IMG/VR virus record: IMGVR_UViG_3300037466_002408
Length of the DNA: 64,000 nucleotides
Reading direction: 5' to 3' (one strand)
Source: an uncultured virus (IMG/VR IMGVR_UViG_3300037466_002408)
Taxonomy: Duplodnaviria > Heunggongvirae > Uroviricota > Caudoviricetes
Under the pieces are notes generated by a model. The model saw nothing but the letters and a program-made list of their open reading frames with translations. It was not told the origin of the DNA and made no database searches. The translations under genes were made by a program, and so were the position numbers. Of this stretch, positions 111 to 58,997 are shown piece after piece. Each line of letters begins with the position of its first letter. Position 1 is the first letter of the stretch.

Positions 111-491
111 TTAACACCTACTGGCGTTTTTGGTTAGTGTTTTTTTGAATACTGCCGAATAAGAGAACGAGTTTTCAATTAATCCTGCCAGTATTTCCTC
201 TCTTACGAGGTAGTTATCGTATCCACAAGAGCATCTGATTTCGCATTGTTTTGGCGGATAATATTGTGCGTCACTATCCATATCTAATTCATATCTCTCT
301 ATGAATGTTAGCTCTTTTAGTGGGGCGATTTTTCCACACTTCTTACACTGGAATTTGAAGTCTCTGATTAGTTCCAACTTCTCTTTGGTTAGTTTGGTTC
401 GGCGTGTTTCCAAAGTTCGCATCTGCCAAGCATTTTTAGAGAGTTTAGTGATTACTTCCTCGTTCGCTAACTGCATATCGCTATCTGACAT
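111..491 (-). CDS. hypothetical zinc-ribbon protein
   Basis: CKKC and CSC motifs; RBS-like GAGG upstream; part of a tightly packed minus-strand run. Confidence 0.6.
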   Translation of the reverse strand: MSDSDMQLANEEVITKLSKNAWQMRTLETRRTKLTKEKLELIRDFKFQCKKCGKIAPLKELTFIERYELDMDSDAQYYPPKQCEIRCSCGYDNYLVREEILAGLIENSFSYSAVFKKTLTKNASRC

Positions 492-493
492 AT

Positions 494-667
494 TTACCTC
501 TTTAGTGTTTGTTTGTATACAACGTCGTATTTGCCGATTTTTACAATTGTAGTTATCTCTTTGGGGAGATTTTTGCTAGGCATCATTGAGCCTGGTTCGG
601 CACCATCACCGCATTCATAACAATCGCGTTGACCGCAATCACCACAAGAGGGTCCAATTGGATACAT
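494..667 (-). CDS. small Cys-rich hypothetical protein
   Basis: CGDC/CYEC motifs; start at MYPIG has GAGG upstream. Confidence 0.5.
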   Translation of the reverse strand: MYPIGPSCGDCGQRDCYECGDGAEPGSMMPSKNLPKEITTIVKIGKYDVVYKQTLKR

Positions 668-669
668 AG

Positions 670-852
670 TTACCTCGGTGTGTGAACGGATATAAAATGC
701 CAGTGGCATTCTTCATCTAATGCTTTCTCTAATTCTGCCAATGTTGTTCCGTCCTCAGAGAAAGAGTCAATGTATTCTTGATTTTCATCAGGTATATTAT
801 TGTATATCCATTGGTAGTGTTCTGATAGTTCGGCGATTTTAGGGTGTGGCAT
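670..852 (-). CDS. hypothetical protein
   Basis: 60 aa ORF with purine-rich RBS, abutting its neighbours. Confidence 0.5.
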   Translation of the reverse strand: MPHPKIAELSEHYQWIYNNIPDENQEYIDSFSEDGTTLAELEKALDEECHWHFISVHTPR

Positions 853-864
853 TATTATTCCCTT

Positions 865-1074
865 TTACATGATGCTGGATAAAATTTTCTTCAGGGCGAT
901 TTCGTTATCTTCCATCTGCCGGAACTTATCAAATAAAACACCAAAGGCATATATTTGATCGTCATTGAGGCTGATATAGTGAATACCGCTTTTTCCGCCG
1001 CAAATATCAATCTCTAGTTGTTTGCTGTTAGGGTATAAGATATAGTCGTGATAGCCAACTCTGATTTGATTCAT
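865..1074 (-). CDS. hypothetical protein
   Basis: GGAGG RBS; abuts the upstream ORF. Confidence 0.55.
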   Translation of the reverse strand: MNQIRVGYHDYILYPNSKQLEIDICGGKSGIHYISLNDDQIYAFGVLFDKFRQMEDNEIALKKILSSIM

Positions 1075-1314
1075 TTAACCCTCCCATTCATTTCCATCAA
1101 TGTCGGCGAGAAGATGTAGTTGTGGCGGAAAATGCCGTTCATATTCCCTCTCAATTTCTGCCTCAATTTGTTCAATGGGGTCTTCTGGCGAAAAAGCGAA
1201 CCATAGTTCGCCTCGTTCCTCCATGGGAATCTCTCTTAGAAGCGCCCGGTGATAGTCAGAGAGTTCTTCCAACTTACTTCCCATAATGCCTTTAAGTTTT
1301 GGAATATTGAACAT
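1075..1314 (-). CDS. hypothetical protein (start uncertain)
   Basis: MFNIPK start overlaps the stop of the upstream ORF. Confidence 0.5.
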   Translation of the reverse strand: MFNIPKLKGIMGSKLEELSDYHRALLREIPMEERGELWFAFSPEDPIEQIEAEIEREYERHFPPQLHLLADIDGNEWEG

Positions 1315-1628
1315 TAGCGGATCACCCAAGGTGCAAAGTACGCCACAAAGTGCGTGAATTTGTGTTCGTGGCGACAAATACCCAAGGAATCGCCAACTTT
1401 ATGCCCGAAAAACACGGAAGCGGGCGCCTCATTGCAGTTAACGCGGCCATTTACGTTATAGTAAACATAGAAGTGCGGATTCCCGTTTTTATCGCCAGCG
1501 GTCACTAATGCCGTCACTGTGATTGGAACATATGTATTGGTGCCCATGAGATCATCGGCGGCAAAAAACAACATAGAGCCGACTAACATAAACGATACTG
1601 TCAAAGGAAAAATTGTAGACCTATCCAT
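1314..1628 (-). CDS. hypothetical membrane-anchored protein
   Basis: N-terminal hydrophobic segment; MDRST start coupled to the upstream stop. Confidence 0.55.
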   Translation of the reverse strand: MDRSTIFPLTVSFMLVGSMLFFAADDLMGTNTYVPITVTALVTAGDKNGNPHFYVYYNVNGRVNCNEAPASVFFGHKVGDSLGICRHEHKFTHFVAYFAPWVIR

Positions 1629-1981: not shown

Positions 1982-2012
1982 TTTTTATCTCCTGTTTGTC
2001 TGTATGGCGATT

Positions 2013-2171
2013 TTACTTCCCATCAATCGCATCGCACGGTGGGCAGTTGAGCCCTCCGCACATGTCCCAAGCCTGGCGCTTTTCTTCATCGGACTTGGCC
2101 GCCCTGACAGGGCAATTGCAACACCGGGCGTGGCTCCTGCACTTGCAGCATATAGAAACTTCCCGTGACAT
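2013..2171 (-). CDS. small Cys-rich protein (52 aa, not in ORF track)
   Basis: Hand translation MSREVSICCKCRSHARCCNCP...CGGLNCPPCDAIDGK, 9 Cys; AGGAG upstream. Confidence 0.5.
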   Translation of the reverse strand: MSREVSICCKCRSHARCCNCPVRAAKSDEEKRQAWDMCGGLNCPPCDAIDGK

Positions 2172-2189
2172 CATCGCGTCGATCTTCTC

Positions 2190-2423
2190 CTATCCTTGGT
2201 CCGGGTAGACCAGGGCATCGCCAAGCGCCTCTTTGATGGCCCGCCCGGCCCGGCAGTCGTAGTGGTCACAAGCCGCGCACGGCTCGGCCACGCCGGGAAG
2301 GTCGCTGTCATCGTAGAAGGCGCTGAAAGCGGCTTGTAGGCCCGCACGAAGCCGGGCAATCTCGGCTTGGGCCTCGTCCCATTGCTCCTGGTTGTACAGC
2401 ACGTCGCATCGCTCTTTGCTCAT
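2190..2423 (-). CDS. hypothetical protein, GC-rich
   Basis: GAGGT RBS; CAAC/C motif. Confidence 0.55.
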   Translation of the reverse strand: MSKERCDVLYNQEQWDEAQAEIARLRAGLQAAFSAFYDDSDLPGVAEPCAACDHYDCRAGRAIKEALGDALVYPDQG

Positions 2424-2618
2424 GATTGATACCTCTACTTCTCGCCCAAACGGTAGCGTAGCTCGGCTACCAAACTCTTCATCATTACAGCCGCCTGGTC
2501 GGGAAAAATCTCAATCCAGTTTTGAAGCCGGTTGCTGTCAACGATGTCCTTTGCGGCTTTCCATTGAACGGGGTCCATTGTTCCTCCTGCATTGATAGGT
2601 TCTGATCTCAGTGATTTC

Positions 2619-3176: not shown

Positions 3177-3222
3177 TTATCCAAAACTTTTAGAAATTCA
3201 CCAAATGCTTGAAGAATGGTGA

Positions 3223-3247
3223 TAAAAAGCCCTCTTTTGGGGGCTTC
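3223..3247. terminator. intrinsic terminator between convergent genes
   Basis: AAAAAGCCCTC-TTTT-GGGGGCTT hairpin. Confidence 0.55.
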
Positions 3248-3254
3248 ATTGATT

Positions 3255-3584
3255 TTACTTCAAATCAACTGTGAAAGCCGGATTCTGTACCGTACCTTCA
3301 GCTTCACAGGCTTGACACTCGTACCAGGCACCGGGGTGCGGCTTATGGCCTCCGGCACCGCCACACGATGAGCAGGCGATCCTGCGAGGCTCCATCAACC
3401 CTCGCGCAACGGCTTCGGCCTCAACCAGTGCCAGGTTCTCGCGGGCGATCTGTGCCTGGCGCTCGGCGTCCTCAACGTCGAAGCGCCGTGTTTGAATGAT
3501 GTCCCTCAGGAGGCCATCCGAGTAGTCGGCGATGTGCCGGGCCTGCGCCCTCTGAATCTCGTCCATCTGCGTATACCTTCTCAA
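3255..3584 (-). CDS. protein with DnaJ-like CxxCxGxG zinc finger
   Basis: CSSCGGAG and CQACEAEG motifs. Confidence 0.6.
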   Translation of the reverse strand: MRRYTQMDEIQRAQARHIADYSDGLLRDIIQTRRFDVEDAERQAQIARENLALVEAEAVARGLMEPRRIACSSCGGAGGHKPHPGAWYECQACEAEGTVQNPAFTVDLK

Positions 3585-3588
3585 CTCC

Positions 3589-3726
3589 CTACAAGCCGCC
3601 GCGCTTTAACCGCTCAAACTCTTGTTTGGCGGCCTCTATCACGGGGCAGACGTGCGCCTTTCGGGCCTCAAGGTCGAAGCCCCAATTGTGGTAACAATGC
3701 GGGCAAAGCCAGTCGGGGTGCTGCAC
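3589..3726 (-). CDS. small zinc-finger-like protein (45 aa, not in ORF track)
   Basis: Hand translation from GTG: MQHPDWLCPHCYHNWGFDLEARKAHVCP...; GAGGT RBS. Confidence 0.45.
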   Translation of the reverse strand: MQHPDWLCPHCYHNWGFDLEARKAHVCPVIEAAKQEFERLKRGGL

Positions 3727-3766
3727 AGGTGATACCTCTACTTATCTCTATTCCGGCAAACGGGGA

Positions 3767-4333
3767 TTACTCCCCGCCGCCACCATCGCCACCACCACCG
3801 GAATCGCCGCCAGAGCTACCGCCGTCGCTAGAACCAGAGTCACCAACAGAATCAGAAGTGCTTACGGCAGAATCGTCATTCGTTGTACCGGAATCGGCAG
3901 GCTCAACGTTGTCATCAGCGGCTTCTTCAGGCTCGCCCATATCAGGCACAGAAGCGGCACCAGCATCCTCAGCAGATTCAGCCTCTACACTCTCAGGTTG
4001 ATCGAGAGTTTGATCTGCGGTGTTGTTGACCTCAATCTCTTCTTGTTGGGAATTCTGAAGCTCGGTCTTTGAAGGTGCAGAGCCTTGAGTCCAAGTGGTT
4101 GCAGAACTATATAAGTCAGCAGTTGAAGTGGAGCTGCCGCCCATGTGAGTTGCAGCCAAATACCACCAAATGCCAGAATTGTCAACATAGCCAACTCGGC
4201 CATCCGAGAAATGATGTAGGTGACGATGGTGTGAAACCGCTTGATAGCCCGTGTGTCGGGGCGCTGAATCACAACCAGCTAGGGAAATCGCCGCAGCTAG
4301 AACTACAGGGATTAGAACAAATTTCTTCTTCAC
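3767..4333 (-). CDS. putative lipoprotein with acidic Gly/Ser-rich tail
   Basis: Signal peptide with lipobox LAGC; low-complexity C-terminus. Confidence 0.7.
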   Translation of the reverse strand: MKKKFVLIPVVLAAAISLAGCDSAPRHTGYQAVSHHRHLHHFSDGRVGYVDNSGIWWYLAATHMGGSSTSTADLYSSATTWTQGSAPSKTELQNSQQEEIEVNNTADQTLDQPESVEAESAEDAGAASVPDMGEPEEAADDNVEPADSGTTNDDSAVSTSDSVGDSGSSDGGSSGGDSGGGGDGGGGE

Positions 4334-8495: not shown

Positions 8496-9974
8496 ATGAA
8501 CGATTTCAAAATTGTGGTTCCGATTGTAAGAGCCATCAAAGACGAAAATGGCGATATGATTATCGAGGGCGTTGCTTCGACTCCCGATGTGGATAGTCAC
8601 GAAACCATCTTTAACGAGAATTGTCAGGAAGGTTTTGAAATTGATGTGAACACGAATGCTGGCACCGATGACCCTGTGGTTATCGAAGTCGAGCATCTTG
8701 GCGAAGTTGAGCCCATGAATCATCTTGGTGCTTTAACAAAAGCCAACGTTACCAATAACTCTGAGTTATTCATTCGCGCTAAGCTCGATCCTAAGAATCC
8801 CAAGGCTGTCTATTACTTCGATGTAATGTCAAATCCTGACCCCAAACTCGGCAGACCTAAGAGATTGGGTCTGTCAATTAATGGTACTGTCGAGGAAGCT
8901 CATTGGGAATACAACGAGGAACTTGGCAAACAAATTCGCGTATTTGATCGCGTTGTTCTTAAAAAAGTTGGTATTGTTCGCTCGCCTTCCAATCCTAACA
9001 CTTGGGTTGAAAAGCTTGTGAGAAGCTATAACTGGAATTCTTCAAAGGAGAATATAATGGAAGAGAATCAGACTACCCAAGACGAAGTGACCACTGTCAC
9101 CACCGAGGAAGTAACGACCGAAGTTCGTGAAGAGGTTACGGAGCCTGAAGTAACCACTGAGGAAGTTGTTTCTAACAACGGTGCTTCCGAGCCCGATGCC
9201 GAGACTGAAACTCGCACCGAGGAAACTGCTGAAGAGACTGTTGTTGAAGCGACAGAGACTCCTGTTGAGGAAGTTACCGAAACCACCGAAGTTGTTGCTG
9301 AGGAAGTTGAGACTGAGCGTTCAGAGGAAACCGCCGAAACAACCACCGAAACCGTTGAGCGCACTAGCTGCTATGCCGTCAATGACGTTCTAGTTGCTAC
9401 CGCCAATCTAGCTTCTGCTATGTCTACCCTAGAGTGGTACGCTGATTATCGTGAGTGGTCAGACAATGGCGTTGCTGATGTTGCTCGCAATATTCTCAAG
9501 GGTATGAACGCTCAAATTCCCGCTCTGCTTTCACTACTCGGCACCGAATTGCTCGCCAAGGAAGCCACCGAGGAAATGCGTGCCGCTGACGCCTCCAACA
9601 CTGAGGTTCATGAAGATCTCTCCGATGATACTGAGATTGATACCGAAGAGGAAGAGACTGTTCAGAAGTCAGCCGATGTTGATGTTGACGCTATTGTTGA
9701 AGCTGTTCGCTCCAAGTTTGCCGACGAGCTAACCACACTAACCAACAAGCTAACTGATGCCGAAAACGCCAACAAACAACTACAAGAGCGTATTGAGCGT
9801 ATGGAGAAAGAACCTACTTCAACTCCTGGTGGTCAGCTACTAAACGCCGAGGTTGTTACTCGCGAAAAGACCACTGAGGATAAGCGTAAGGAAGCAATCG
9901 CCAGAGCCAAGGCTAACAATGACGCTCACGAACTAACAAAGCTTCTATTGAATCCTAAATACCTCGGTAAGTAA
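8496..9974 (+). CDS. prohead protease fused to acidic scaffold domain
   Basis: IIEGVASTPDVDSH, EH, GLSING protease motifs; E/T-rich then coiled-coil C-terminus; precedes capsid gene. Confidence 0.85.
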   Translation: MNDFKIVVPIVRAIKDENGDMIIEGVASTPDVDSHETIFNENCQEGFEIDVNTNAGTDDPVVIEVEHLGEVEPMNHLGALTKANVTNNSELFIRAKLDPKNPKAVYYFDVMSNPDPKLGRPKRLGLSINGTVEEAHWEYNEELGKQIRVFDRVVLKKVGIVRSPSNPNTWVEKLVRSYNWNSSKENIMEENQTTQDEVTTVTTEEVTTEVREEVTEPEVTTEEVVSNNGASEPDAETETRTEETAEETVVEATETPVEEVTETTEVVAEEVETERSEETAETTTETVERTSCYAVNDVLVATANLASAMSTLEWYADYREWSDNGVADVARNILKGMNAQIPALLSLLGTELLAKEATEEMRAADASNTEVHEDLSDDTEIDTEEEETVQKSADVDVDAIVEAVRSKFADELTTLTNKLTDAENANKQLQERIERMEKEPTSTPGGQLLNAEVVTREKTTEDKRKEAIARAKANNDAHELTKLLLNPKYLGK

Positions 9975-10173: not shown

Positions 10174-11094
10174 ATGTCAACTTCTAAGGAAATTATCACT
10201 CGCGCCCTAAATACCACGAACTTTGCTAACGCTATTCATGAGGATCTATCCGATCTAGTCACTATGTTGACTCCTAAGGATACCCCCCTCTTCAAGCGTC
10301 TAGCCCGTGGTAAGGCGACCGCTCTAACTCATGAGTGGATGGAAACAACTCTAACCGGCACCCTCAATGATGCGGCTTACGCCGATGGTGGTTCACCTTC
10401 AGAGCATACCAACACTCACGCTCGTCGTGGTTCAAAGGTTATGTCTCTAGGTCGTATTGCCAAGGCTTCCGAGCTAATCAATGCCACCAACACCGTTGGT
10501 CAAGACGCTTATGCGACCGAATTCCAAGAGAAGATGGTTGACCTAATGCGTGCCATTGAGTGGTTCATCTTCAATGGTGATGAGGCCAACACTGCTCCCC
10601 AGGAAATGTCCGGTCTAGTGACCCTATCAAGCGGCTTCCAGAGCGTTGCCAACGGTAATGCTGCTCTAGCCCAAGCCAAGCTTGATGAGGCCATTGTTAA
10701 GGCTTTCGACAACGGTGGCGCTCCTGACCTAATTATCGCCCGTCCTATTGTGGCTCAGCGTATTGCCGGTTTCACCGCCGACAAGATCCGCTACACCACT
10801 GGCGGTGGCGCTAACGGTCTATCAGCCGAGACTCTAACCTACCTCTCCCCTCTAGGTCCCACCCTTGAGATTCTACCCGTCCGTGCGGACTTCCTACCTT
10901 CCGGCGCTGTTTACATCGTCGAGTCCGGTAAGATCAAGCTCTGCTCACTAGGCGACGGTCCCGAGATCAAGGTCAAGGAACTACCCCTAGATGGCGACGT
11001 GGTTGCTAAGACTCTCATCAAGGCTTACCTAACCCTAGAGCTTCGTGCCCTCGGTCATCACGCCAAGGTTACGGGTGTCACCGACTCCCTCTAA
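10174..11094 (+). CDS. major capsid protein (DUF5309/SU10-like)
   Basis: EDLSDLVTMLTPKDTPLF, HEW, IEWFIFNGD; follows scaffold; strong codon bias; own terminator. Confidence 0.9.
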   Translation: MSTSKEIITRALNTTNFANAIHEDLSDLVTMLTPKDTPLFKRLARGKATALTHEWMETTLTGTLNDAAYADGGSPSEHTNTHARRGSKVMSLGRIAKASELINATNTVGQDAYATEFQEKMVDLMRAIEWFIFNGDEANTAPQEMSGLVTLSSGFQSVANGNAALAQAKLDEAIVKAFDNGGAPDLIIARPIVAQRIAGFTADKIRYTTGGGANGLSAETLTYLSPLGPTLEILPVRADFLPSGAVYIVESGKIKLCSLGDGPEIKVKELPLDGDVVAKTLIKAYLTLELRALGHHAKVTGVTDSL

Positions 11095-16592: not shown

Positions 16593-17507
16593 GTGAGTTA
16601 TAATACCATCAACAGTGCCCCGGTCAGGCAAACTATCATCTCCTGTGCTATGGGTTCCACGGGTCTTGGCAGTTTTCTTGCTATTGGCACCGGATTGGCT
16701 GTTAACTTGTCGGCTGTACCACTCAACCTCACTTGGGCCAACGGCTTCAATAATGTGACCGGACAGCCTGTTGATTTTTACGTTAGTGTATCGGCCACGG
16801 TAACTGGCGCGTGGAGCGGATTGACGGCAAGTTCCACTTGCTACCTCTACGTCGACTACAACAGCGGCACGCCTAGCTATGGCTTCTCAGTCCTTGCTCC
16901 GCTGTATCAGCCTACCGCGCCTGGTTCGCCCGCTACGGGCCAGCATTGGTTTGATACCACCGTCTTCCTGATGAAGTCGTGGAGCGGTTCGGCTTGGACG
17001 ACTGTCTATCGGGTGTTCGTTGGCGTGGCTGTCACTGGTGCCTCGACCGTTACCTCTGTCACGGCCTTCCCGCCCAAGAATCGCACCCACGTCATCGCCC
17101 GCCGAGCAGCTAATATGGCCGTGACCGCCAATGTCGGCTTTCTCGTCCCGTTTGATACGCGCACCCGCGACGAACTCTACGAGCTTGATATCACCAACGG
17201 TCGCGTCAACATCAAACGCTCGGGATGGTATCTCGTCACTGGCGCTATGTACCTCTCCTCCGTTCCCTCGGGGACAAACGTGGTGCTTGCCTCGATTACC
17301 GTGAACGGGTCGGAAGTGGCGCGCGCCGCTCAGATTGCCACCACGGTCAACGCCGTCTACTCTGAGGCGTGCAGCGCCACGCTCTACCTCAACGCGGGCG
17401 ATTACGTCAACCTTGGGGGCTGGAGCAGCGCCAACTGCACCCTGAACAGCACCGATATCGGGGCTTATACCAACCAGCTTATAGTGGTTGGCCTCGACAA
17501 CTTGTAA
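16593..17507 (+). CDS. fibre/receptor-binding protein with possible C1q-like C-terminal domain
   Basis: GTG start after AAGGAG; PATGQHWFDT; SGWYLVT...LYLNAGDYV. Confidence 0.65.
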   Translation: MSYNTINSAPVRQTIISCAMGSTGLGSFLAIGTGLAVNLSAVPLNLTWANGFNNVTGQPVDFYVSVSATVTGAWSGLTASSTCYLYVDYNSGTPSYGFSVLAPLYQPTAPGSPATGQHWFDTTVFLMKSWSGSAWTTVYRVFVGVAVTGASTVTSVTAFPPKNRTHVIARRAANMAVTANVGFLVPFDTRTRDELYELDITNGRVNIKRSGWYLVTGAMYLSSVPSGTNVVLASITVNGSEVARAAQIATTVNAVYSEACSATLYLNAGDYVNLGGWSSANCTLNSTDIGAYTNQLIVVGLDNL

Positions 17508-19889: not shown

Positions 19890-21353
19890 ATGTCTCCAAT
19901 CGTTAATAACTTCACAAACTTCACCACCCCTGATGTGTTCGTGCGCGAGGCTACTCCTGCCGCTTCCATCAAGGGCTCAAGCATCGGCGTTGTGGGCGTT
20001 CCTGTCCAAGCTATCCGTGGCCCTGTTGGCGAGCCTACCGTCGTTTCCAGCCTAAGCGATTACGTGCGTAAGTTCGGCGGTTACGATCCTTCCGTCAAGG
20101 AAGACTTCATGTTCATGTACAACCTATTTAACAACGGTGCTACCGAGGTTGTGGTTGTGCGTGTTACCGACTCCAACGAAGCCAAGGCTACCGTTGCTCA
20201 GAATGGCACCACCTTCCGTCTAAAGACTCCTGGTTCCTGGGGCAACGGCGCTAAGCTAACTTCCGCTGCTTCTTCCGTTTCTGGTTATGTGGATCTAACC
20301 TTCACCTACGGTAACGAAACCTACAAGTATTCACAGGTGACTTTTGCCGACGCCAACGATCCCCAATACTTCAAGACCATCATTGAGGCTTCCCCTGATG
20401 ATTTCGTTGAGGTTATTGTTGCTGGCAATACCAACATTGCTGTTGGCACTTACACATTCTCTGGTGGTTCAAACGGTACTGCTGTTGGCATGGCTCTAGA
20501 CGACACCTCTTACGTTGGCACCAACGATGCTAACGGTCTAACTGGTCTAGTGGCTCTTGAGGCCGATGACGATGTTGAGATTGTGGTTTGCCCCCGCGCC
20601 AACGACACTGTTAACGCCGCTGTTCTAACTCATGTTTCTCTAGCCTCTGTCTCACCTCGTATTGCTGTTGTTGCTCCTGCTTCCGGCACAATCGTTAACG
20701 ACGTTGTGACCTCAATGGCTGCCTACAACTCAGATCGCCTAGTTGTGACTTACCCCTTCGTGCAGGTTCTAAACCCTTACAACAACAAGAAGGAATATCA
20801 CAACCCCACAGCTTTCTACGCTGGTGTTCTCGCCCAACTCAACTACCACCAGTCACCTTCACGCAATCAGCTAATTGGCGTTATCGGTACCGAGCGTGCC
20901 CTACAGCCTGCCGAGGTTGATACCCTTGGTAAGAATCGCGTTTCACCCATTGGTCTAAAGAAGGCTACTGGCTTCGTGATTCTAAACGGCATCAACACTT
21001 CTTCAATTCCCGCCAAGGCCAACATCACTCGTCGCCGCGCTGTTAACTACTTCGCTAAGACCTTTGAGGCTGGTTCTCAACAGTTCGTTTCCAAGCCTCA
21101 TACTGTCCAGCTACGCTCTGATGTGAAGTCTGCCTTTGGCACCCTTCTAAACAACGAGCTACAATTGGGTCGCATTGGTAACGTTAACGGTGGCAAGGCT
21201 TACGCTGTCAAGTGTGACGAGCAAAACAACACGAATGATGTGGTTCGCGCCAACAAAATGATGGTTGATGTGCAAATCTCACTCCTAGCTCCTGCTGACT
21301 TCATCCTAGTCACCATCGACGCCAGCGAAGCCAAGGTTGTCAACATTCAGTAA
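19890..21353 (+). CDS. contractile tail sheath protein
   Basis: PDVFVRE, RGPVGEP..YVRKFGG, FSGGSNG, VKCDEQNN, PADFI. Confidence 0.92.
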   Translation: MSPIVNNFTNFTTPDVFVREATPAASIKGSSIGVVGVPVQAIRGPVGEPTVVSSLSDYVRKFGGYDPSVKEDFMFMYNLFNNGATEVVVVRVTDSNEAKATVAQNGTTFRLKTPGSWGNGAKLTSAASSVSGYVDLTFTYGNETYKYSQVTFADANDPQYFKTIIEASPDDFVEVIVAGNTNIAVGTYTFSGGSNGTAVGMALDDTSYVGTNDANGLTGLVALEADDDVEIVVCPRANDTVNAAVLTHVSLASVSPRIAVVAPASGTIVNDVVTSMAAYNSDRLVVTYPFVQVLNPYNNKKEYHNPTAFYAGVLAQLNYHQSPSRNQLIGVIGTERALQPAEVDTLGKNRVSPIGLKKATGFVILNGINTSSIPAKANITRRRAVNYFAKTFEAGSQQFVSKPHTVQLRSDVKSAFGTLLNNELQLGRIGNVNGGKAYAVKCDEQNNTNDVVRANKMMVDVQISLLAPADFILVTIDASEAKVVNIQ

Positions 21354-21424
21354 TCGCCAATAACTAAAAATGAAGAGTGGGGAGGGTAAACCTCCCTGCT
21401 CAACCTATATTGAAGGAGAATTAA

Positions 21425-21946
21425 ATGGGTAAAGCAAGAGTAATGGGCAATAACGCCAAGATTTATGTAATGGATGCGTCAGCGCAGCCTATTCTTGTTG
21501 GCGAATGCGATAAGTTTGGCGCTAAGTCGCTAGATGAGCTAAAGAAGTCTCAGGCTCTAGGTGAGAAGAATATCACCTCGCAGACTGTATTCAAAGGCTA
21601 CGACATGGATTTCGAAGGTGGTAAGGTTGACGCCAACCTAGCCGCTCTAATGCACTCACAGGACAAGCAGATTGCCGCTGGTGGTCGCTCACCTTATTTC
21701 AAGGTGAAGGAAGAAGTGACCCTATTTGATGGCACTGTTGAGGTTTGGTGGTACGACGAAGTGACCCTACACGGTTACGAGAAGGATAGCCCCTCAGAGG
21801 ATCAGCTATCAGGTAAGTTCTCTGGCTTCTGCGGCGTTCCTTGCCGTCGTGGCGATGAGGCTACTGAAACTGCTTCAGCCGCCGCTGATGCTACTGTCAC
21901 CGCGATGTTGGCTGCGATGACCGGAGTCCAAAAGCGTTTTAGCTAA
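21425..21946 (+). CDS. tail tube protein (likely major)
   Basis: Directly after sheath; AAGGAG RBS; capsid-like codon bias. Confidence 0.75.
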   Translation: MGKARVMGNNAKIYVMDASAQPILVGECDKFGAKSLDELKKSQALGEKNITSQTVFKGYDMDFEGGKVDANLAALMHSQDKQIAAGGRSPYFKVKEEVTLFDGTVEVWWYDEVTLHGYEKDSPSEDQLSGKFSGFCGVPCRRGDEATETASAAADATVTAMLAAMTGVQKRFS

Positions 21947-21958
21947 TAGGTAATAAAA

Positions 21959-22453
21959 ATGGGCAAAGCAAGAGTTTATAGCAATAACGCTGTAATTCTA
22001 ATTCACTCACAAGCTTTGCTAACTCCCATTCCTCTCGGTGAACTAGACTCCTTCAAAGCTACTTCCTCAACCTCCATTATTAAGAGTCGCCCAATCGGTT
22101 TCATTAACGAGCAAGCCACTCTTCAATATGGAGGTTGGGATTTATCTTTTGATGGCGGCAAAGTGGATTGGAGCTTAGCGCATTATTACTGGCTACAAGA
22201 TCGTCAGCTTCGTGCTGGTGGTGTTGAGCCAGAGATTATGATTAGCGAAACCGTGCTTCACTACAATGGAGCCATCGAACAATATCTATACAAGGGTGTG
22301 ACCATTTTCGGCCTTGAATCAGACAAAGGCGAGGAAGTCAAAGAATCGGCTAAAGGTTTTTCTTCTTACAGAATTATGAGTCCTGCTGACACAACTAATG
22401 TCGCAGATGCCACCAACATCATTAGACAACTTCTCTTTAAAACGGCAGAATAA
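21959..22453 (+). CDS. tail tube-like paralog 2
   Basis: MGKARV..NNA, GELD.F, GGKVD shared with 21425..21946. Confidence 0.7.
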   Translation: MGKARVYSNNAVILIHSQALLTPIPLGELDSFKATSSTSIIKSRPIGFINEQATLQYGGWDLSFDGGKVDWSLAHYYWLQDRQLRAGGVEPEIMISETVLHYNGAIEQYLYKGVTIFGLESDKGEEVKESAKGFSSYRIMSPADTTNVADATNIIRQLLFKTAE

Positions 22454-22456
22454 AAC

Positions 22457-23158
22457 ATGGCGCTATTTGACGATATCTCACAATTCAGTACAGATGTGAC
22501 CGATTTAACAGAGGCGTTTGTCTCTAAGAATCTGCCCGATAACTATTTCGCCATTCCTAAAAAGAGAATCCTTACCTCTCGCGCAAAAATCAAACTAACT
22601 GTGCCTAACTTTGGCCTTGGTGGTGTTGGTGGCGATGAGATTGAAATTGGCGAAGTGGACCAATTCAACGCCTCAATTAACTTTGAGGTGGTCAAGCAAT
22701 TTCGCCCATACGGACACACCAAGCTAAAAACAATCACTCGTCCTGCTGGCTGGAACATCAATATGTCTGGTGGTAAAATTGATTGGAAGCTATCTTACCT
22801 CGTTTATATGAATGAGCGTTTTCTACTCGGTAATAACAGTAACAAATCATCAGTAAGTAGCATTACCTCGTTTGGTAAAGGCGAATCTGAAGCCATTGGT
22901 AATCAATTGCTTTTTGTTGCAGAGCAAACCATCACTTACTATGACGGCACCGTTGAGAGATACAAGTATAAAGATTTAGTGCTGCTAAACTACGGCCTAG
23001 AAATGGCCTATAACAACGTCGAGATTCCAGAGAGTCTTTCTGCTTTTTCGCCCGAAAGAATTATTGATAGTGATTTTGAGAATGACTACCGCGTAACTAA
23101 AATTAAGAGTACGGGGATGGATATTATCTCAACAATGATGGAAATCAATAAATCTTAA
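22457..23158 (+). CDS. tail tube-like paralog 3
   Basis: GEVDQF, GGKIDW, YDGTVE shared with the two upstream genes. Confidence 0.65.
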   Translation: MALFDDISQFSTDVTDLTEAFVSKNLPDNYFAIPKKRILTSRAKIKLTVPNFGLGGVGGDEIEIGEVDQFNASINFEVVKQFRPYGHTKLKTITRPAGWNINMSGGKIDWKLSYLVYMNERFLLGNNSNKSSVSSITSFGKGESEAIGNQLLFVAEQTITYYDGTVERYKYKDLVLLNYGLEMAYNNVEIPESLSAFSPERIIDSDFENDYRVTKIKSTGMDIISTMMEINKS

Positions 23159-23167
23159 GGAGCTAAC

Positions 23168-23470
23168 ATGGCAGAAAAGACTTTGTGTACTGGCAAGAAG
23201 GTTGTCGTCAACGAGCTAAGCGCCCTAGAGGAAGTTCTAGCGTATCAGCTACTCGGCAAGAGTTATGACGAGAAGAATATGATCGGTACCGCTACCCTAC
23301 AGCGTTCACTTCTAACTCTCCTATCAATTGGCAGTGTTGATGGCGTTGATTACGTTCCTCCCAAGTCTCTTGAGGATGCTTTTACCAAGCTAAAAGATTT
23401 CTCCAAGAAGGAATGGAACGAGATTCAGGCTCTCTACAGTGAGGTCAACGACGTAGACATGGGGGAATAG
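23168..23470 (+). CDS. tail assembly chaperone (gpG-like)
   Basis: Position after tubes; ends at a G-GGG-GAA slippery run. Confidence 0.75.
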   Translation: MAEKTLCTGKKVVVNELSALEEVLAYQLLGKSYDEKNMIGTATLQRSLLTLLSIGSVDGVDYVPPKSLEDAFTKLKDFSKKEWNEIQALYSEVNDVDMGE

Positions 23471-23643
23471 ACCGCCTTGCTGATAATCCGGTACTCAGAC
23501 AGGGCTTATATCTTGTGAAATCCGGTATCCCTTGGGAGGCAGTTTTCGGTCCAATTAGAAAGCCATTAAATAGAGTTCAGAGAAGCGCAATCGTAATTGT
23601 TCTCAATGAATTAAATGGTGTAGATTATAGCAATGAACGTTGA
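23461..23643 (+). CDS. -1 frameshift extension of the tail chaperone (gpT-like)
   Basis: 60-codon open -1 frame GGIDRLADNPVLRQGLYLVKSGIPWEAVF...SNER ending just before a terminator. Confidence 0.7.
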   Translation, partial: GGIDRLADNPVLRQGLYLVKSGIPWEAVFGPIRKPLNRVQRSAIVIVLNELNGVDYSNER

Positions 23644-23645
23644 TG

Positions 23646-23670
23646 GAGAGCGGCGAAAGCCGCTCTCTTT
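23646..23670 (+). terminator. intrinsic terminator
   Basis: GAGAGCGGC-GAAA-GCCGCTCTC followed by TTT. Confidence 0.75.
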
Positions 23671-23706
23671 AATATTAAATAAAATTTGAATGAGCGAGGC
23701 CCCTCA

Positions 23707-24402
23707 ATGATTTACTTCACCGAAATCGACAAAGATAAAAACAAAATTCTTTTCCAATTTTTCGACAGAGAGCTTCCTGAGGGTATTGCTCCTGGCAAAG
23801 AAACCGCCATGAAAAAGGTCAAGTATCCTGGTGGTTTCCAAACCAATCAAATCATTGGTGTGTACCAAAAGGAAATTGAATTCGGCGGATTGTTTTATGG
23901 TACCTATAAGGTAAACGGTGAAACGCTAACAGCCAAAGATAGAGCAGACTTTATCCTCGGTGAAGGTCGCTACAAAGGGCAGGGCTTAATGGGTCGTCCT
24001 CTGCGTGTTGGCTTCCCTGTTCCTGGTCATAGTCCCAAGGGCAATTTGCCTGGCGAAACACCTACTCTCGATATTACTGACGAGGGATACGGTGGTTTTG
24101 TTGGCGAATATGTTATTGAGGATTTCACGCCTGTAGTTAAAAGCTACTTCGAAGTCGAGTATTCAATCAGACTTGTTCCTCACCAGCGTCAAGAGAAAAT
24201 TCGCCCGACAGAAACAACCTCAGTCAAGATTACGGTAAACGTAAATAACGCCAAAGCCGCTGGAACCAGACTACAAACAAAAGCAAAAGCCACAAAGCAC
24301 CCTTCTCTAAAAAAAGCTGGTAAAGCAGGAAAAGCCGCCACAACAACAGCAGCTAAAGCAGAGCCGGAAAAGATTCAATTCGAAAAAGATTACAAGAGAT
24401 AA
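23707..24402 (+). CDS. putative tube initiator / baseplate protein (P2 gpU-like) with basic tail
   Basis: YPGG..NQIIG....IEFGGLF, GEYVIEDF..EYSIRL. Confidence 0.5.
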   Translation: MIYFTEIDKDKNKILFQFFDRELPEGIAPGKETAMKKVKYPGGFQTNQIIGVYQKEIEFGGLFYGTYKVNGETLTAKDRADFILGEGRYKGQGLMGRPLRVGFPVPGHSPKGNLPGETPTLDITDEGYGGFVGEYVIEDFTPVVKSYFEVEYSIRLVPHQRQEKIRPTETTSVKITVNVNNAKAAGTRLQTKAKATKHPSLKKAGKAGKAATTTAAKAEPEKIQFEKDYKR

Positions 24403-24405
24403 CCA

Positions 24406-26742
24406 ATGGCTGATTTTACTTATGATATTCTGGTAAATATTCTTGGTGAGCAGGATGCCACCAATTTCGCCAGAACACTACGCACAGCAGGTATCGAGGT
24501 ACAGAAGTTCTCTCGTATGTCTCGCGGTGCCAATGGCTCTCTCGTTGAAGAGACTCAATTCGCCATTAAAAGACTCAATCAGCAACAGCGCGATCTAGTT
24601 CGCTTCTATTCCAATGCTTTCCGCAATACTCCCAATGGTGGCGGTACAGGTCAATACAGAGAGAATTACACGGGTCAAACACCTCAGGGTATGGCTCGTC
24701 GCATTCGCCTTGCGCAAAATCTCGCCAACATTCAAGGTCGAGTTCTAAGACAACAACAGAAACAAATTGAGTTAGATGCTCGTCACGCTTCTCAGGCCAG
24801 CAATTCAAATATCTCCAACCAATTCAAACTTAATGACGCTCTCCGCAAGCAGATTGATGCAGAAGATCAATTGGTCAATGTGGAGAAAAAGCGTCGTGCT
24901 GCCATTCAGCAACTAATCAATGAGTCTCAGCATTATCACGGCATGGCTGTTAGATATGCTGAAATGGAGAGAAATGCGCGTGTAAATGGCGACAACGCCG
25001 CTGCACAAAGCCATCATTTGTATTTCCAGCGTTATGTGTCAGAGTCTCGCCGCATGGCTTCTGAGGCCGAAAGAGCCGCCAAGCGCGAGCTACGTGCTGC
25101 CGAGAATTCCGCCCAAAGACAAGAGAGAATTATCAGAAACCTAGTAAGCTTAAAGCATTCGCTTTGGGCCATTGGCGCTCTTGTTGGTGTCGAAAGACTT
25201 GCAAGCGGATTTAGAGGAATCACTGACCATATCTACGAGGCTTATAAAGCTTCTGTTGAATTCAATGACGAAGCAGTGAAAGCTCAAACGCTATTCACCT
25301 CGCTTGGCATTGGTGATACAGGTCAAAGCCAAATGGATATTGAAAGAGGTGGCGCTGGTATTACCGCATCCATGAAGAAGCAGCTTGAAGGCGCTAAACT
25401 CATGGGTAAAGACCTAACCGATCTACTCCGCGAGGAATCGGCAAAAACAGGCCAGGACTTCTCTGAAATCATGGGTGTGGCTAAGGCTGCGCTTCCTGAC
25501 TTGAAAAACAAAATGGGAGTTTCTGATAAGGAGTTCTTAGCCAAAGGTGGCGACGTTAAACAATTCACCAAAGACCTAATTGAGCTATCTGCCGTCATGA
25601 AGATGGTGGACGAAAAGGGTCGCAAAATGTCCTTCCACACCGTAGGTATTCTAGAAGCCTTTACTGGCTCTGGTGGCGACGGCAAGAAGGGCTCTGGTGC
25701 TGCCAACTTCCTATCCTTGCTACGTCGTGAAAACATCAAGCTAAAAACCGCCGACCAAAAAGCTATTACAGACGCTATTAACGCCCGTAATCCCTTCAAG
25801 GCTATGGAAGCAATGAAGAAGGCTCTAAAGGGTGCTGGTATTGATGCAAATAACATCAACACGCTTCTCTCTAAGACTCGCGAGGCTAACATTTCCGGCG
25901 TAACCAACGCTTTCAAGACAATGGGCGGTGCTATCACCGAAACATCAAGAACTCTAGAAATGAAATTCTTCTCGTCAATGAGAATCAATATGGCGAGAAT
26001 CATTGCCAATGATGGATTCAAGAAGATGTTCAAGGGCTGGGATAAAGCTCTTGGCGGTTTCGTTGATCGTATTCTTGGCGACCTCACGAAAGCAATGGAT
26101 TTCCTTGCTCAAAATCCGCAACTTATCGACAATGCGTTCAAGTCTGCTATTGCGACAATGAATGAATTCTACACTATTACAAAGGAAGTAATTGACCTCG
26201 GCGCTGCCTTCTTTGAGGGCTTCTTCAGCCAGGACACCATTGATGGCTTTAAGATGGCTGATGCTGTTGATAGAGTTAAGGTAGCCCTAATTGCCCTTCG
26301 CCCCACAATGGTTGATATCGGCAAAAACGGCAGAATGATTACCAACGCTTTTGGTACATTGGGCTCAATGACCTTCAACGGATTAGTCTTTACGTTGAAG
26401 CTTATCAATAACCTTATCAATCTAATGAAGATTGGTATGGAAGGAGTAGCTTCGGCTGCTGGTACGCTATCCACAATGTTTGACCCCAAATCGGAAACCG
26501 TTAGTCCTCCTACGGCTGTCGATGCATATGTAAGACAAAATGGTGGTTTCGGCGGATACGACCCCAGAACGCAACCTTCTAACCTCGGTGGTCCAGTTGG
26601 TGGAATTACAATTCATGGTGATGTTCACGTTCAAGGCGGTAATAACAACAAGGAACTAATGAAGAACTTACAGCAAGCGGCTGGTGCATACGGGCCGATG
26701 ATGCTCCCTGAGGGCTCTCAACTTCCTTTTGCGGCTAGGTAA
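24406..26742 (+). CDS. tape measure protein
   Basis: 778 aa, helical Ala/Lys/Gly-rich; ITIHGDVHV near the C-terminus; precedes LysM and hub genes. Confidence 0.8.
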   Translation: MADFTYDILVNILGEQDATNFARTLRTAGIEVQKFSRMSRGANGSLVEETQFAIKRLNQQQRDLVRFYSNAFRNTPNGGGTGQYRENYTGQTPQGMARRIRLAQNLANIQGRVLRQQQKQIELDARHASQASNSNISNQFKLNDALRKQIDAEDQLVNVEKKRRAAIQQLINESQHYHGMAVRYAEMERNARVNGDNAAAQSHHLYFQRYVSESRRMASEAERAAKRELRAAENSAQRQERIIRNLVSLKHSLWAIGALVGVERLASGFRGITDHIYEAYKASVEFNDEAVKAQTLFTSLGIGDTGQSQMDIERGGAGITASMKKQLEGAKLMGKDLTDLLREESAKTGQDFSEIMGVAKAALPDLKNKMGVSDKEFLAKGGDVKQFTKDLIELSAVMKMVDEKGRKMSFHTVGILEAFTGSGGDGKKGSGAANFLSLLRRENIKLKTADQKAITDAINARNPFKAMEAMKKALKGAGIDANNINTLLSKTREANISGVTNAFKTMGGAITETSRTLEMKFFSSMRINMARIIANDGFKKMFKGWDKALGGFVDRILGDLTKAMDFLAQNPQLIDNAFKSAIATMNEFYTITKEVIDLGAAFFEGFFSQDTIDGFKMADAVDRVKVALIALRPTMVDIGKNGRMITNAFGTLGSMTFNGLVFTLKLINNLINLMKIGMEGVASAAGTLSTMFDPKSETVSPPTAVDAYVRQNGGFGGYDPRTQPSNLGGPVGGITIHGDVHVQGGNNNKELMKNLQQAAGAYGPMMLPEGSQLPFAAR

Positions 26743-35991: not shown

Positions 35992-36423
35992 ATGGATTAT
36001 CTAGCAATTGCAGCCCTTGTTATTCATCTAGTGCAGGCTCACTGGACTACGGTTTTGATTATTGCCGCGTCCGTGCAGGCTATGTATGTGGCACTACAAG
36101 GCAAGGCTTACGACAAGTTTTTCGCCCTAGCAAAAGAGCTAGTGGTGAAGGTGGCCGATGAGGAGCTATCTGGTCCCGATAAGCGTAAGAAGGTAATTGA
36201 CGACGCTTATGTGATGCTTCCTCTGTGGGCTAAGGCTCTGGTAACTCAGGCACAGGCCGAGGTGCTTGCCGAGAGAGCTTATCAGGTTCTACGTGGCGAA
36301 ATGGCTAAAGCCCCTGAGCCTGCTCCGGTTGTGACACCTCCTGTTACCTCGGTTGACCCCACGGTTCCAGTGGTTGACGAAGCCAATATGGAAGTCAAGT
36401 CGCCCATCAAGATTGAAGAGTAA
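35992..36423 (+). CDS. putative holin
   Basis: Hydrophobic N-terminus; SGPDKRKKV motif as in LL-H-like holins. Confidence 0.55.
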   Translation: MDYLAIAALVIHLVQAHWTTVLIIAASVQAMYVALQGKAYDKFFALAKELVVKVADEELSGPDKRKKVIDDAYVMLPLWAKALVTQAQAEVLAERAYQVLRGEMAKAPEPAPVVTPPVTSVDPTVPVVDEANMEVKSPIKIEE

Positions 36424-39752: not shown

Positions 39753-40964
39753 TTACTCGTCGTTCTTCAATAGGAACTTGGGTGAAACCACCTTGAAGGA
39801 AACAAGGCCAGCATTTAGGTCGCTGAGGTTGTAATCGGTGTCCATTGAATGAAGGCGGTAGACAAGTCCCTCTCGCTCTGTCTTGTTGTTGTAGACAGAC
39901 TTACCCTCTGACATTTTCACCAACTCATCAATGGTATGGTCTAGGACAAAACTACCATCAAGAATCGGCACGAAATCAAGCTCCATCTGCGCCACCATTT
40001 CAGTTGCCTCATCCAAAGGCAGATACATACCGGCATCAGTGTGGTAAGCCTGGAATACAAATAGACGCTTCTTGTCGAAGTTATACTTGTTGCCCTGAAT
40101 GCCAGGACCGCACATTTCACCCTGAATAGCAATGTTATCGACGCCGAGTGAGCGCATCTTCTTTTCTAGGTCTAGCTCAATCGCCAAATCCCAAAACTTA
40201 GAATCAACACCTTGCTCAATATCAACTAGCTCTAGCAGAGCGCCGAAGAACTTATCGCGGATAACATCAATCCACTTCTTAGGCAGCGGTAGCTTGCTGA
40301 ATTCATACTCAGCCTTCTTCACCTTACCACGTAGCTTGAACTTGTTAATTAGGTCATTCCATAGGCCCTGACCAGGACGCGCAAGTTCATAATTGCGCGA
40401 GCAAACGCCGAATCGGCCGTTGTGCAAAAACGCCGTGAAAGAAGACCCATCCATCTTCTCGGTGACATAGAAAGTCCGGCCACGATACTTATTAATCAGC
40501 TTTTGAAGAATCTGAATGCGAGTCTCATCGGTCTTATGGACAAACTCAGGGAATCGCTTCGGCTGCTTCTTCTTGAATTGTTGTAGAGCCTTGGGCAGCT
40601 TGGACTTCTGCTTGACCGTATCCTGATAAGGCTCGTACTTCTTAATGCCGAGGACGTTAGTCACGTCATCGCCTTCCTTATAATTGCCCTCTGGCAAAAT
40701 AGACATGGGGAAGCAAATGCCCTGAGACACCTGACCGCGCATCTTCTGAGTCTTAATGCGGAACTTCTTAGGGCGAAGGAATTCAAACTCAGGACGCTCA
40801 GGCATCAATGAGTCGATTTCGCAATAGACAACCTTAGACCCTACCTCAAATTCTCCCTTTTTTACCACAACATTCCATCCAAGTACCTTCGCTACTTCGA
40901 TATTGTCAGCGCCTTCAATGGGATTAATTTCAGTAACAACTTGAATACTCGCCAACTTACGCAC
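39753..40964 (-). CDS. RNA ligase (DRB0094 family)
   Basis: MRKLASI OB-like N-terminus, KTDETRIQ, TEKMDGSS, QGEMCGPGIQGN, REGLV, SFKV. Confidence 0.9.
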   Translation of the reverse strand: MRKLASIQVVTEINPIEGADNIEVAKVLGWNVVVKKGEFEVGSKVVYCEIDSLMPERPEFEFLRPKKFRIKTQKMRGQVSQGICFPMSILPEGNYKEGDDVTNVLGIKKYEPYQDTVKQKSKLPKALQQFKKKQPKRFPEFVHKTDETRIQILQKLINKYRGRTFYVTEKMDGSSFTAFLHNGRFGVCSRNYELARPGQGLWNDLINKFKLRGKVKKAEYEFSKLPLPKKWIDVIRDKFFGALLELVDIEQGVDSKFWDLAIELDLEKKMRSLGVDNIAIQGEMCGPGIQGNKYNFDKKRLFVFQAYHTDAGMYLPLDEATEMVAQMELDFVPILDGSFVLDHTIDELVKMSEGKSVYNNKTEREGLVYRLHSMDTDYNLSDLNAGLVSFKVVSPKFLLKNDE

Positions 40965-44203: not shown

Positions 44204-44746
44204 TTATCTCCTGGTCTTTTCAACAATACCGAACTCTTTTGTTGTGTTCAACACTTTGATATTTTTATCTGGGTGGTTTAGTCGTGCAAATTCACCATGT
44301 ATAATTCTAGCGATTTGGTCATAAGCCATACTTGCTGTTAACTCATCGTTGAAAAGCCCTATGTGCGCCTTTTTACCATTAAGTTTTATCCCGCACTGGA
44401 ATTTCTTATGCCTACTAGAAAAACTAACGCCTTTATATATTGAAGTCAATCCGTGGCTCGGTTTACCCATATTTCTGGCGTTGCCGCTAAAATCACAAAT
44501 CCTTAAGTTGTCTCTTGTGTTGTTTAGCCTATTGCCGTCTATATGATCAACCAAACAACTCTCATTAAGAACATTCAATATCTGCCTGTGAAGGCGCACT
44601 CTTACCGGAACACCCTCTTCTTGAGATTTTCTTGTTCGATAAACATACCCTTTTTTATCTAGCATCCAATTGTGTTTGGAAATTTCACTATAATCAGCAT
44701 CACTAACTGTAAATTCTGTGCCGTTAGTTGTCATTATTTTTTTCAT
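44204..44746 (-). CDS. HNH-AP2 homing endonuclease
   Basis: LHRQI, VDHIDGNRLNNTRDNLR, SIYKGV, AYD..HGEFARLN. Confidence 0.9.
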   Translation of the reverse strand: MKKIMTTNGTEFTVSDADYSEISKHNWMLDKKGYVYRTRKSQEEGVPVRVRLHRQILNVLNESCLVDHIDGNRLNNTRDNLRICDFSGNARNMGKPSHGLTSIYKGVSFSSRHKKFQCGIKLNGKKAHIGLFNDELTASMAYDQIARIIHGEFARLNHPDKNIKVLNTTKEFGIVEKTRR

Positions 44747-51716: not shown

Positions 51717-52226
51717 TTGTCAGAAAACAATGTGCTAGTTCTAAATAACAGTTTTTTGCCTTTGGGTAATTGCAGTATTGAAAAAGCCATTTGTCTTTTG
51801 GTAATTGGCAAGGCAAATTCTGTAAAGGATTCAGATAAATCTGTCCGATCAGTTTCTACAGAAATCCCCATTCCTCTCGTTATTTATTTACCAAATGTCA
51901 ATTATGTAAGGGCAAAAAATCCGCCCCCGCCAACCAGAAGAAATGTCTTCTCTCGCGATAAACATACCTGCGTTTACTGTGGTAGTCAAAACAAAAACAA
52001 TCTTACCCTCGACCATGTTATCCCCAAAAACCGATGGAAAGAGATTAATCGGAAGAGTCCCTTGCATTATGGAATTAATTCCTGGCAGAATCTAACAACA
52101 GCATGTCGTGATTGCAATGCTTATAAAAGCGACCATCTGTTAAGTGAGCTTGGTTGGCCCGAAATCCGCCCCAAAGCACCACTTACTTCCCTCGATATCC
52201 AATGGGACCTTATTATGGAGTCATAA
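51717..52226 (+). CDS. HNH endonuclease
   Basis: VLVLN, RRNVFSRDKHTCVYCG, TLDHVIP, WQNLTTACRDCN. Confidence 0.88.
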   Translation: MSENNVLVLNNSFLPLGNCSIEKAICLLVIGKANSVKDSDKSVRSVSTEIPIPLVIYLPNVNYVRAKNPPPPTRRNVFSRDKHTCVYCGSQNKNNLTLDHVIPKNRWKEINRKSPLHYGINSWQNLTTACRDCNAYKSDHLLSELGWPEIRPKAPLTSLDIQWDLIMES

Positions 52227-57731: not shown

Positions 57732-57815
57732 GCTAGGTTGCCAGAGTGGTCGATTGGGATGGTTTTGTAATCCATTAGCGAAAGCTCACCGCAGGTTCAA
57801 ATCCTGTGCCTAGCT
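57732..57815 (+). tRNA. tRNA-Thr(UGU) with long variable arm (alternative reading Tyr GUA)
   Basis: Acceptor GCTAGGT/GCCTAGC; loop TT-TGT-AA; V-arm AGC-GAAA-GCT; T-arm GCAGG-TTCAAAT-CCTGT; no CCA. Confidence 0.75.
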
Positions 57816-57878
57816 CTTGCCAATTAGCTTTATCGAAGAATGTAAAGTTATTCATGAAATAATTTTCGATTCGATAAG

Positions 57879-58484: not shown

Positions 58485-58559
58485 GCCAGAGTAGCTTAAT
58501 TGGATAGAGCAGCAGGCTCCAAACCTGCTAGGTGGGGGTTCAATTCCTCTCTCTGTGCG
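58485..58559 (+). tRNA. tRNA-Trp(CCA)
   Basis: GCAGG-CTCCAAA-CCTGC anticodon arm; T-arm GGGGG-TTCAATT-CCTCT; irregular acceptor end. Confidence 0.8.
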
Positions 58560-58994: not shown

Positions 58995-58997
58995 CTA

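Follow-up and report, generated by a model that had tools for sequence, protein, structure and literature searches.

Preferential use of the leucine codon CTA in the capsid, sheath, and tube genes of an uncultured soil myovirus, a probable sign of translational selection for tRNA-Leu(UAG)

The major capsid protein gene of an uncultured contractile-tail phage uses CTA for 23 of its 34 leucines (CTC 7, CTT 3, TTG 1, CTG 0, and TTA 0). This bias is confined to five genes, namely those for the capsid protein, the tail sheath, and the first of two tube-position proteins, plus two small genes. The effect most likely tracks the abundance of the proteins, not the timing of their expression. We attribute it, with a probability of roughly 0.58, to expression-linked translational selection for decoding by tRNA-Leu(UAG), the likeliest source of this tRNA being the host, ahead of a phage gene and then of a remodeled tRNA pool. 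The leucine codon counts of the capsid gene exactly reproduce those made by hand in the initial annotation of this DNA, which had proposed that late translation as a whole is tuned to a tRNA-Leu(UAG) supplied by the phage or spared during infection.

The window, by which we mean the whole stretch of 64,000 nucleotides that was analyzed, encodes 74 proteins whose Pfam matches include those expected of a contractile-tail phage (SU10-type capsid, sheath, baseplate J, gp25, and V, portal, and large terminase) and likewise RecA, ThyA, DHFR, PhoH, nrdJ, and an RNA ligase. Its DNA was found in seven sequencing datasets, all of them soil or rhizosphere metagenomes, with no RNA dataset among them. Related capsid genes were present in four IMG/VR records. 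One of these (G001/G002; L001) is a 28.7-kb fragment of the same phage, with a capsid 100% identical to that of the window. The other three are relatives: G003 (44.8 kb), G004 (95 kb, 94% complete), and G005 (100.7 kb, complete and bounded by terminal repeats). From the genome sizes of G004 and G005, the window represents roughly two thirds of a 95- to 100-kb myovirus genome. An exact search with the end patterns of the window recovered only the 28.7-kb IMG/VR contig, which adds 791 bases at the left, and the same type of search in metagenome contigs gave no extension. A metagenome scan guided by the nrdJ protein returned 80 loci, the best of them 69% identical and none belonging to this phage.

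Several other features of these genomes were recorded. Around positions 2000..2600 and 3200..4000, the window contains GC-rich islands (58-61% GC versus 45% overall) with small minus-strand ORFs, one of which encodes a 109-aa protein with CxxC...CxxC motifs; the islands look like recent acquisitions from a GC-richer donor. GATC occurs 113 times in the window against 231 expected, and GGCC, TCGA, CATG, and TGCA are also under-represented, a shortage that suggests pressure from restriction systems. In G005, the regions 21761..26056 and 20423..21613 (L047 1761..6056 and 423..1613) encode a DnaE-type polymerase III alpha subunit, split into two ORFs with a LAGLIDADG-domain ORF between them, and an RtcB RNA ligase.

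Leucine codons were counted gene by gene (Table 1). With CTA making up 23.4% of leucine codons in the other genes, at least 23 CTA among 34 leucines has a binomial probability of 5e-8. The background was taken from genes of at least 100 codons, in which CTA and CTT each account for 26% of leucine codons and CTG and TTA for 9% each. The sheath gene is likewise CTA-rich and also lacks CTG; its CTA count refers to the likely start and becomes 22/29 in the longest ORF. The first tube gene follows the same pattern, and its paralogue has 5 CTA among 15 leucines. The initial annotation was right in describing the sheath, first tube, and putative chaperone genes as CTA-rich, nrdJ as using mostly CTT, the gene at 16593..17507 as using mostly CTC and CTT, and the capsid gene as favoring AAG, GAG, ATC, and TTC. 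It had also called the scaffold candidate similarly CTA-rich, which went too far, as the enrichment of this gene relative to other genes is mild.

Table 1. Features of the window discussed in the text, with codon counts (CTA, CTC, and CTT as fractions of leucine codons)
Feature	Position	Strand	Basis or remarks	Codon counts
Scaffold or protease candidate upstream of capsid gene	8496..9974	+	No family match	CTA 12/33
Major capsid protein gene (SU10-type)	10174..11094	+	306 aa; Pfam PF17236, E=4e-34	CTA 23/34; AAG 17/17, GAG 13/18, TTC 8/9, ATC 9/18
GC-rich gene	16593..17507			CTC 10/24, CTT 7/24, CTA 0/24
Tail sheath gene	19890..21353	+	Likely start is ATG 19890, preceded by AAAGGA motif	CTA 21/28, CTG 0; AAG 20/21
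First of two paralogous tube-position genes	21425..21946	+	Position, 3' of sheath; PHROGs gives an unnamed family only	CTA 8/10; AAG 13/15
Small gene at tail-assembly chaperone position	23168..23470	+		CTA 8/14; AAG 9/10
Small hydrophobic protein, lysis cassette	35992..36423	+	3' of endolysin	CTA 7/13; AAG 9/11
RNA ligase gene	39753..40964	-	PF09414 and PHA02142 OB fold; PHROG 968	CTA 13/38; AAG 43/45
HNH-type homing endonuclease genes	44204..44746, 51717..52226, 57879..58478, 58968..59498		Two flank the tRNA cluster
tRNA, anticodon UGU (reads ACA)	57732..57816	+	85 nt, long variable arm
tRNA-Trp (CCA)	58485..58558	+	ARAGORN
tRNA-like gene	58564..58640	+	Rfam tRNA, 48.1 bits; missed by ARAGORN
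tRNA-Arg (UCU), reads AGA	58644..58717	+	ARAGORN
nrdJ (comparison gene)	60860..62821	+		CTT 20/49, CTA 14/49; AAG 38/42

The CTA excess belongs to a coherent set of codon choices. When the capsid, sheath, and first tube genes were pooled and compared with the remaining 68 genes, CTA gave the strongest signal (53/73 versus 294/1259; Fisher P=1e-17). AAG, AAC, TAC, ACC, and CGT were also enriched in these three genes, and GCA (1/108), AAA (4/54), ACA (5/80), CTT, AAT, AGT, and GTA were depleted. The top genes thus avoid A-ending codons for Ala, Thr, Val, Gly, Pro, and Lys and prefer them for Leu and, weakly, for Ser. Because the other A-ending codons are depleted in the CTA-rich genes, there is no general bias toward A, and a simple base or strand bias is ruled out. 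These patterns support the view that selection acts on this one codon and that its decoder is a tRNA-Leu with anticodon UAG, and to this extent the original inference stands. The tetranucleotide CTAG occurs in the window as often as expected (141 versus 140.9), and the base following CTA is unremarkable. To provide a base rate, CTA-rich genes were surveyed among 588 genes from 83 unrelated loci. Four genes with at least 50% CTA were found, confined to two contigs, L060 (a 445-kb metagenome contig that includes archaeal-type Rpb1/Rpb2-type RNA polymerase genes) and L074. On these contigs, plus-strand genes use CTA or TTA together with AAA, whereas minus-strand genes use CTT or TTG and more AAG. 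Their CTA-rich genes are therefore strand-linked and AAA-rich, unlike those of the window.

The same preference was found in the capsid genes of the relatives, whose products are 52-58% identical to that of the window. CTA accounts for 13/30 leucine codons in G003, 25/31 in G004, and 14/36 in G005, above the genome-wide shares of 24%, 25%, and 10%, respectively (P=0.015, 9e-11, and 4e-6). CTG is absent from the four capsid genes (0/131 versus 7.7 expected; P=3.5e-4). At conserved four-fold sites, the number of codons identical between the window and G004 (27 observed, 24.5 expected) or G005 (25 observed, 24.6 expected) is that expected from codon usage, so the common codons are not leftovers of shared ancestry; some excess is left in the comparison with G003 (39 versus 29.1). 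Leucines of the window capsid that are not leucine in a given relative are mostly encoded by CTA (6-8 of 10-14). Since the diverged relatives keep CTA-rich, CTG-free capsid genes although genome GC content varies from 34% to 45% across the lineage, the CTA preference is actively maintained by selection.

Late genes as a class do not share this preference. The CTA share of leucine codons is 68% in the top five genes, 25% (132/521) in the other 26 virion and lysis genes, 23% in the minus-strand module (portal, terminase, RecA, ThyA, and RNA ligase), 20% in the nucleotide and replication module, and 18% in the small genes at the left end. Because the other virion and lysis genes do not differ from the modules at 36459-63792 (138/638, 22%; Fisher P=0.14), we found no codon switch between early and late genes, and the switch proposed in the initial annotation is not supported; only five genes stand out. 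Equal CTA frequency in all gene classes, which had been named beforehand as evidence against that proposal, is indeed what we found for the classes as such, but a few abundant proteins differ. Nor is the CTA bias a smooth gradient across genes. With the top three genes removed, the CTA fraction and the use of optimal codons for amino acids other than leucine are uncorrelated (Spearman r=0.06). Twelve genes with at least 75% AAG (86% AAG overall; the RNA ligase gene and nrdJ are examples) have just 28% CTA and ordinary AAC and TAC usage. Both observations count against translational selection for host tRNAs. Such a step-like pattern can mean that CTA, AAC, and TAC respond solely to the strongest selection, or that the top late genes meet a different tRNA pool.

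ARAGORN predicted three tRNAs (Thr-UGU, Trp-CCA, and Arg-UCU) at 57.7-58.7 kb, and no tRNA-Leu(UAG) was found in the 64-kb window by ARAGORN or Rfam, in agreement with the initial inspection. ACA and AGA, which are read by tRNAs of the window, stand at 7% and 8% in the top genes versus 29% and 27% in ordinary genes, so the phage's own tRNAs in the window serve other codons. The UGU gene combines a Thr anticodon with a 4-bp variable-arm stem resembling that of class II tRNAs (Leu, Ser, and Tyr) and has a U discriminator. A similar 83-nt gene, with discriminator A, lies at 278996..279078 of a Yersinia phage (NC_042116.1) that is unrelated to the window. The tRNA-like gene between the Trp and Arg genes has normal acceptor, D, and T arms, but its anticodon arm, which contains CUAG, is enlarged by four bases and has an oversized loop of ~11 bases, GCAGCUAGCAG. 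It was considered as a hidden tRNA-Leu(UAG) and rejected because its sequence cannot be folded into a canonical anticodon loop of 7 bases. Kinship with the Leu-UAG tRNA of G005 was not demonstrable either, since their identity (0.61) is lower than that to a Lys tRNA (0.68), the best found. G004 has an odd tRNA-like gene as well (25243..25318; L012 2068..2143), called Phe(aaa) by ARAGORN and adjoining tRNA-Arg(UCU); its loop differs from that of the window gene and lacks UAG. Genes of this type could be decoys, regulatory tRNA mimics, or decayed genes.

The two most complete relatives differ in tRNA content. G005 carries 26 tRNAs, including Leu-UAG, Leu-UAA, and Leu-CAA. Bacterial tRNA-Leu usually has a long variable arm, whereas the G005 genes at 91546..91620 (UAA), 91699..91774 (UAG), and 92958..93032 (CAA) are 75-76 nt long and have none; the Trp(CCA) tRNA of the same phage measures 84 nt. 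G004 has only Met, Arg-UCU, and the odd tRNA-like gene, and thus no tRNA-Leu(UAG). Gene order is conserved, and it places both tRNA loci of G004 and G005 within the window: the first close to the RecA/PhoH region, the second after ribonucleotide reductase. The window has no Leu tRNA at either. In G004, the segment at ~33-68 kb corresponds to the portion of this phage outside the window and contains no tRNA, and the missing 6% of G004 is unlikely to hold any, judging from the contig ends, which sit among tail-fibre genes. Because G004 shows the strongest capsid bias without a tRNA-Leu(UAG), the bias can arise in this lineage without a phage copy, and such a gene is probably absent from the present phage. 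The suggestion that the phage supplies the tRNA is therefore not borne out for this window.

Searches for close phages and for the host gave few leads. Capsid tblastn matched seven phage records, none of them above 27% identity, and megablast gave no match, so that no close cultured phage was found. TerL and sheath matches reached just 23-29% and were scattered across many hosts. The species genomes searched had no prophage copy and gave only three matches of 17-31 residues, the protein cluster look-up returned only the name 'hypothetical protein', and ESM Atlas taxa were uninformative for ThyA and a small GC-rich ORF. The tail-fibre proteins had either no match or a match of 14% coverage to Synechococcus phages. 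A cyanobacterial host was considered, but the capsid gene of Nostoc phage A1 uses mostly TTA and TTG (CTA 3/36) and lends no support to it. A UPF0114 gene matches plasmid records, mostly proteobacterial, at 39% or less; Shine-Dalgarno-like motifs precede 49% of genes versus a 12% background; and the window encodes a 181-aa single-domain amidase followed by a coiled-coil protein with a transmembrane segment. These features weakly suggest that the host is Gram-negative and relies on Shine-Dalgarno sites.

Phages with known hosts were examined for comparison. E. coli prefers CTG for leucine. In T4, gp23 has 17 CTG among 29 leucine codons and gp22 has 8 among 19, whereas in each of 15 further T4 genes CTG was counted 0-3 times, and TTA predominates. 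The bias in T4 is likewise sharp and restricted to the most abundant proteins, but T4 uses the codon preferred by its host where the window uses CTA. By analogy, T4 supports the view that the top genes of a phage follow the host. T4 encodes tRNAs of its own (Leu-UAA, Arg-UCU, Thr-UGU, and others), which match its AT-rich average codon usage. T4 is also the classical case of tRNA-Leu cleavage, and the initial annotation had invoked cleavage of tRNA-Leu(CAG) during T4 infection as a parallel; given the CTG-rich gp23, that parallel points the opposite way. The capsid gene of Vibrio phage VAP7 has 17 CTT and 10 CTA among 32 leucine codons. In the Yersinia jumbo phage fHe-Yen9-04, CTA encodes 17/29 leucines of the major head protein and 12/26 of SSB; CTG is missing from both genes and almost absent across 20 genes of this phage. 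The phage carries a tRNA-Leu(UAG) among the 28 distinct tRNA genes called. Enterobacteria prefer CTG; a phage can thus sustain a CTA dialect with a tRNA of its own even where its host would favor CTG, and the rule that top genes copy the host is unsafe for CTA. ARAGORN also called a tRNA with anticodon CUA ('Pyl') in this phage (NC_042116.1, 292524..292599), which would be of the amber-suppressor type.

According to the explanation that we favor, the capsid, sheath, and first tube genes and the two small genes would be the most heavily translated genes of the phage. As such, they would have been selected for a single codon set comprising CTA, AAG, AAC, TAC, TTC, ACC, CGT, and pyrimidine-ending four-fold codons. 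The best-supplied leucine decoder in the infected cell would be a tRNA-Leu with anticodon UAG, most likely the host's own, and CTA would be to this phage what CTG is to T4 gp23 in E. coli. Of the initial inference, selection for decoding by tRNA-Leu(UAG) is thereby retained, because CTA goes up as other A-ending codons go down, and the late switch is dropped. CUA is rarely the preferred leucine codon of bacteria, which, together with the tRNA-Leu(UAG) of G005, counts against a host tRNA. The phage could instead supply the decoder from a tRNA-Leu(UAG) gene in the approximately one third of its genome outside the window, with the top genes tuned to it. The 26-tRNA cluster of G005 is in favor of this, as is the unrelated fHe-Yen9-04 with its CTA-rich major head gene and matching tRNA. 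We nevertheless consider it unlikely, as the window includes both positions at which the relatives have tRNA loci and holds a Leu tRNA at neither, the corresponding stretch of G004 is free of tRNAs despite the strongest bias in the lineage, and the tRNAs of the window read codons that the top genes avoid. Causes unrelated to translation, such as mutational or strand bias, restriction-site avoidance, or mRNA stability, are very improbable. Strand-linked artefacts of this type do exist, as the four genes of the survey demonstrate, but in the present phage the top genes are poor in other A-ending codons, same-strand neighbors show no bias, CTAG is at expectation, and the bias persists in relatives of different GC content.

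The tRNA pool of the infected cell might alternatively be remodeled. Leu isoacceptors with anticodon CAG, GAG, UAA, or CAA would be cleaved or depleted by anticodon nucleases of the host or by phage shut-off, and the UAG isoacceptor would be spared; this we regard as doubtful. It would follow, with similarly low likelihood, that heavily translated late genes converge on CTA whatever the uninfected host prefers. The absence of CTG from the four capsid genes, the recurrence of CTA-rich top genes in the Yersinia phage, and the failure of AAG-biased genes outside the top virion set to share the CTA bias are consistent with such a pool, as are the RNA-repair genes of the lineage (an RNA ligase in the window and an RtcB RNA ligase in G005). 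However, no polynucleotide kinase/phosphatase is among the Pfam matches of the 74 proteins; the remaining late genes, which would draw on that pool too, have no higher CTA use than the early modules; and T4 retains CTG in gp23 despite tRNA-Leu cleavage. A broader proposal, which we also think improbable, is that unrelated virulent phages (this soil myovirus lineage and the Yersinia jumbo phage) converge on a host-independent CTA dialect because tRNA-Leu(UAG) stays usable when CUG- and UUR-readers are lost to shut-off or anticodon-nuclease defences. It is equally tentative that some of these phages would add a tRNA-Leu(UAG) of their own and that others, including this one, would use a spared host copy.

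If the host prefers CTA too, the phage offers a textbook example of how virion genes are tuned to the tRNAs of the host, and the signature (CTA, AAG, pyrimidine-ending four-fold codons, and no CTG) could serve as a host-prediction fingerprint for an uncultured soil phage lineage. If it does not, the phage groups with the Yersinia jumbo phage, and the two would suggest that phages favor one Leu tRNA for a reason yet unexplained, with implications for tRNA-targeting defences and for the reasons that phages carry tRNAs. Searches of an open-access library found no paper on CTA preference in abundant phage proteins.

Time-of-expression codon classes were reportedly recognized in T4 by Cowe and Sharp in 1991. 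As in T4, gene sets of the window have different dialects, but the split is between a few abundant proteins and the rest, not between early and late genes. Codon compensation by phage-encoded tRNAs is said to have been treated by Bailly-Bechet et al. in 2007. G005 and fHe-Yen9-04, each of which has both a CTA-rich capsid gene and a tRNA-Leu(UAG) gene, conform to it, whereas the window and G004 lack such a tRNA. One article describes codon compensation by phage tRNAs as the most widely accepted hypothesis (PMC10264068). According to Zborowsky et al. 2025 (PMC11726456), whether key phage genes are translated can hinge on how much of a single Leu isoacceptor is available; the tRNA concerned in that account is tRNA-Leu(UAA) of marine Synechococcus, with resistance through its loss, whereas the present case concerns UAG. 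In many phages, according to Lucks et al. 2008 (PMC2266997), head and tail proteins are biased toward host-preferred codons. The window, like T4, shows a sharp multi-amino-acid bias in its most abundant virion proteins, but its leucine codon is CTA, and CTG is avoided completely. Expression-linked translational selection on phage virion genes is of a known kind; the unusual points here are that CTA is the preferred codon and that this choice recurs in phages that are not related.
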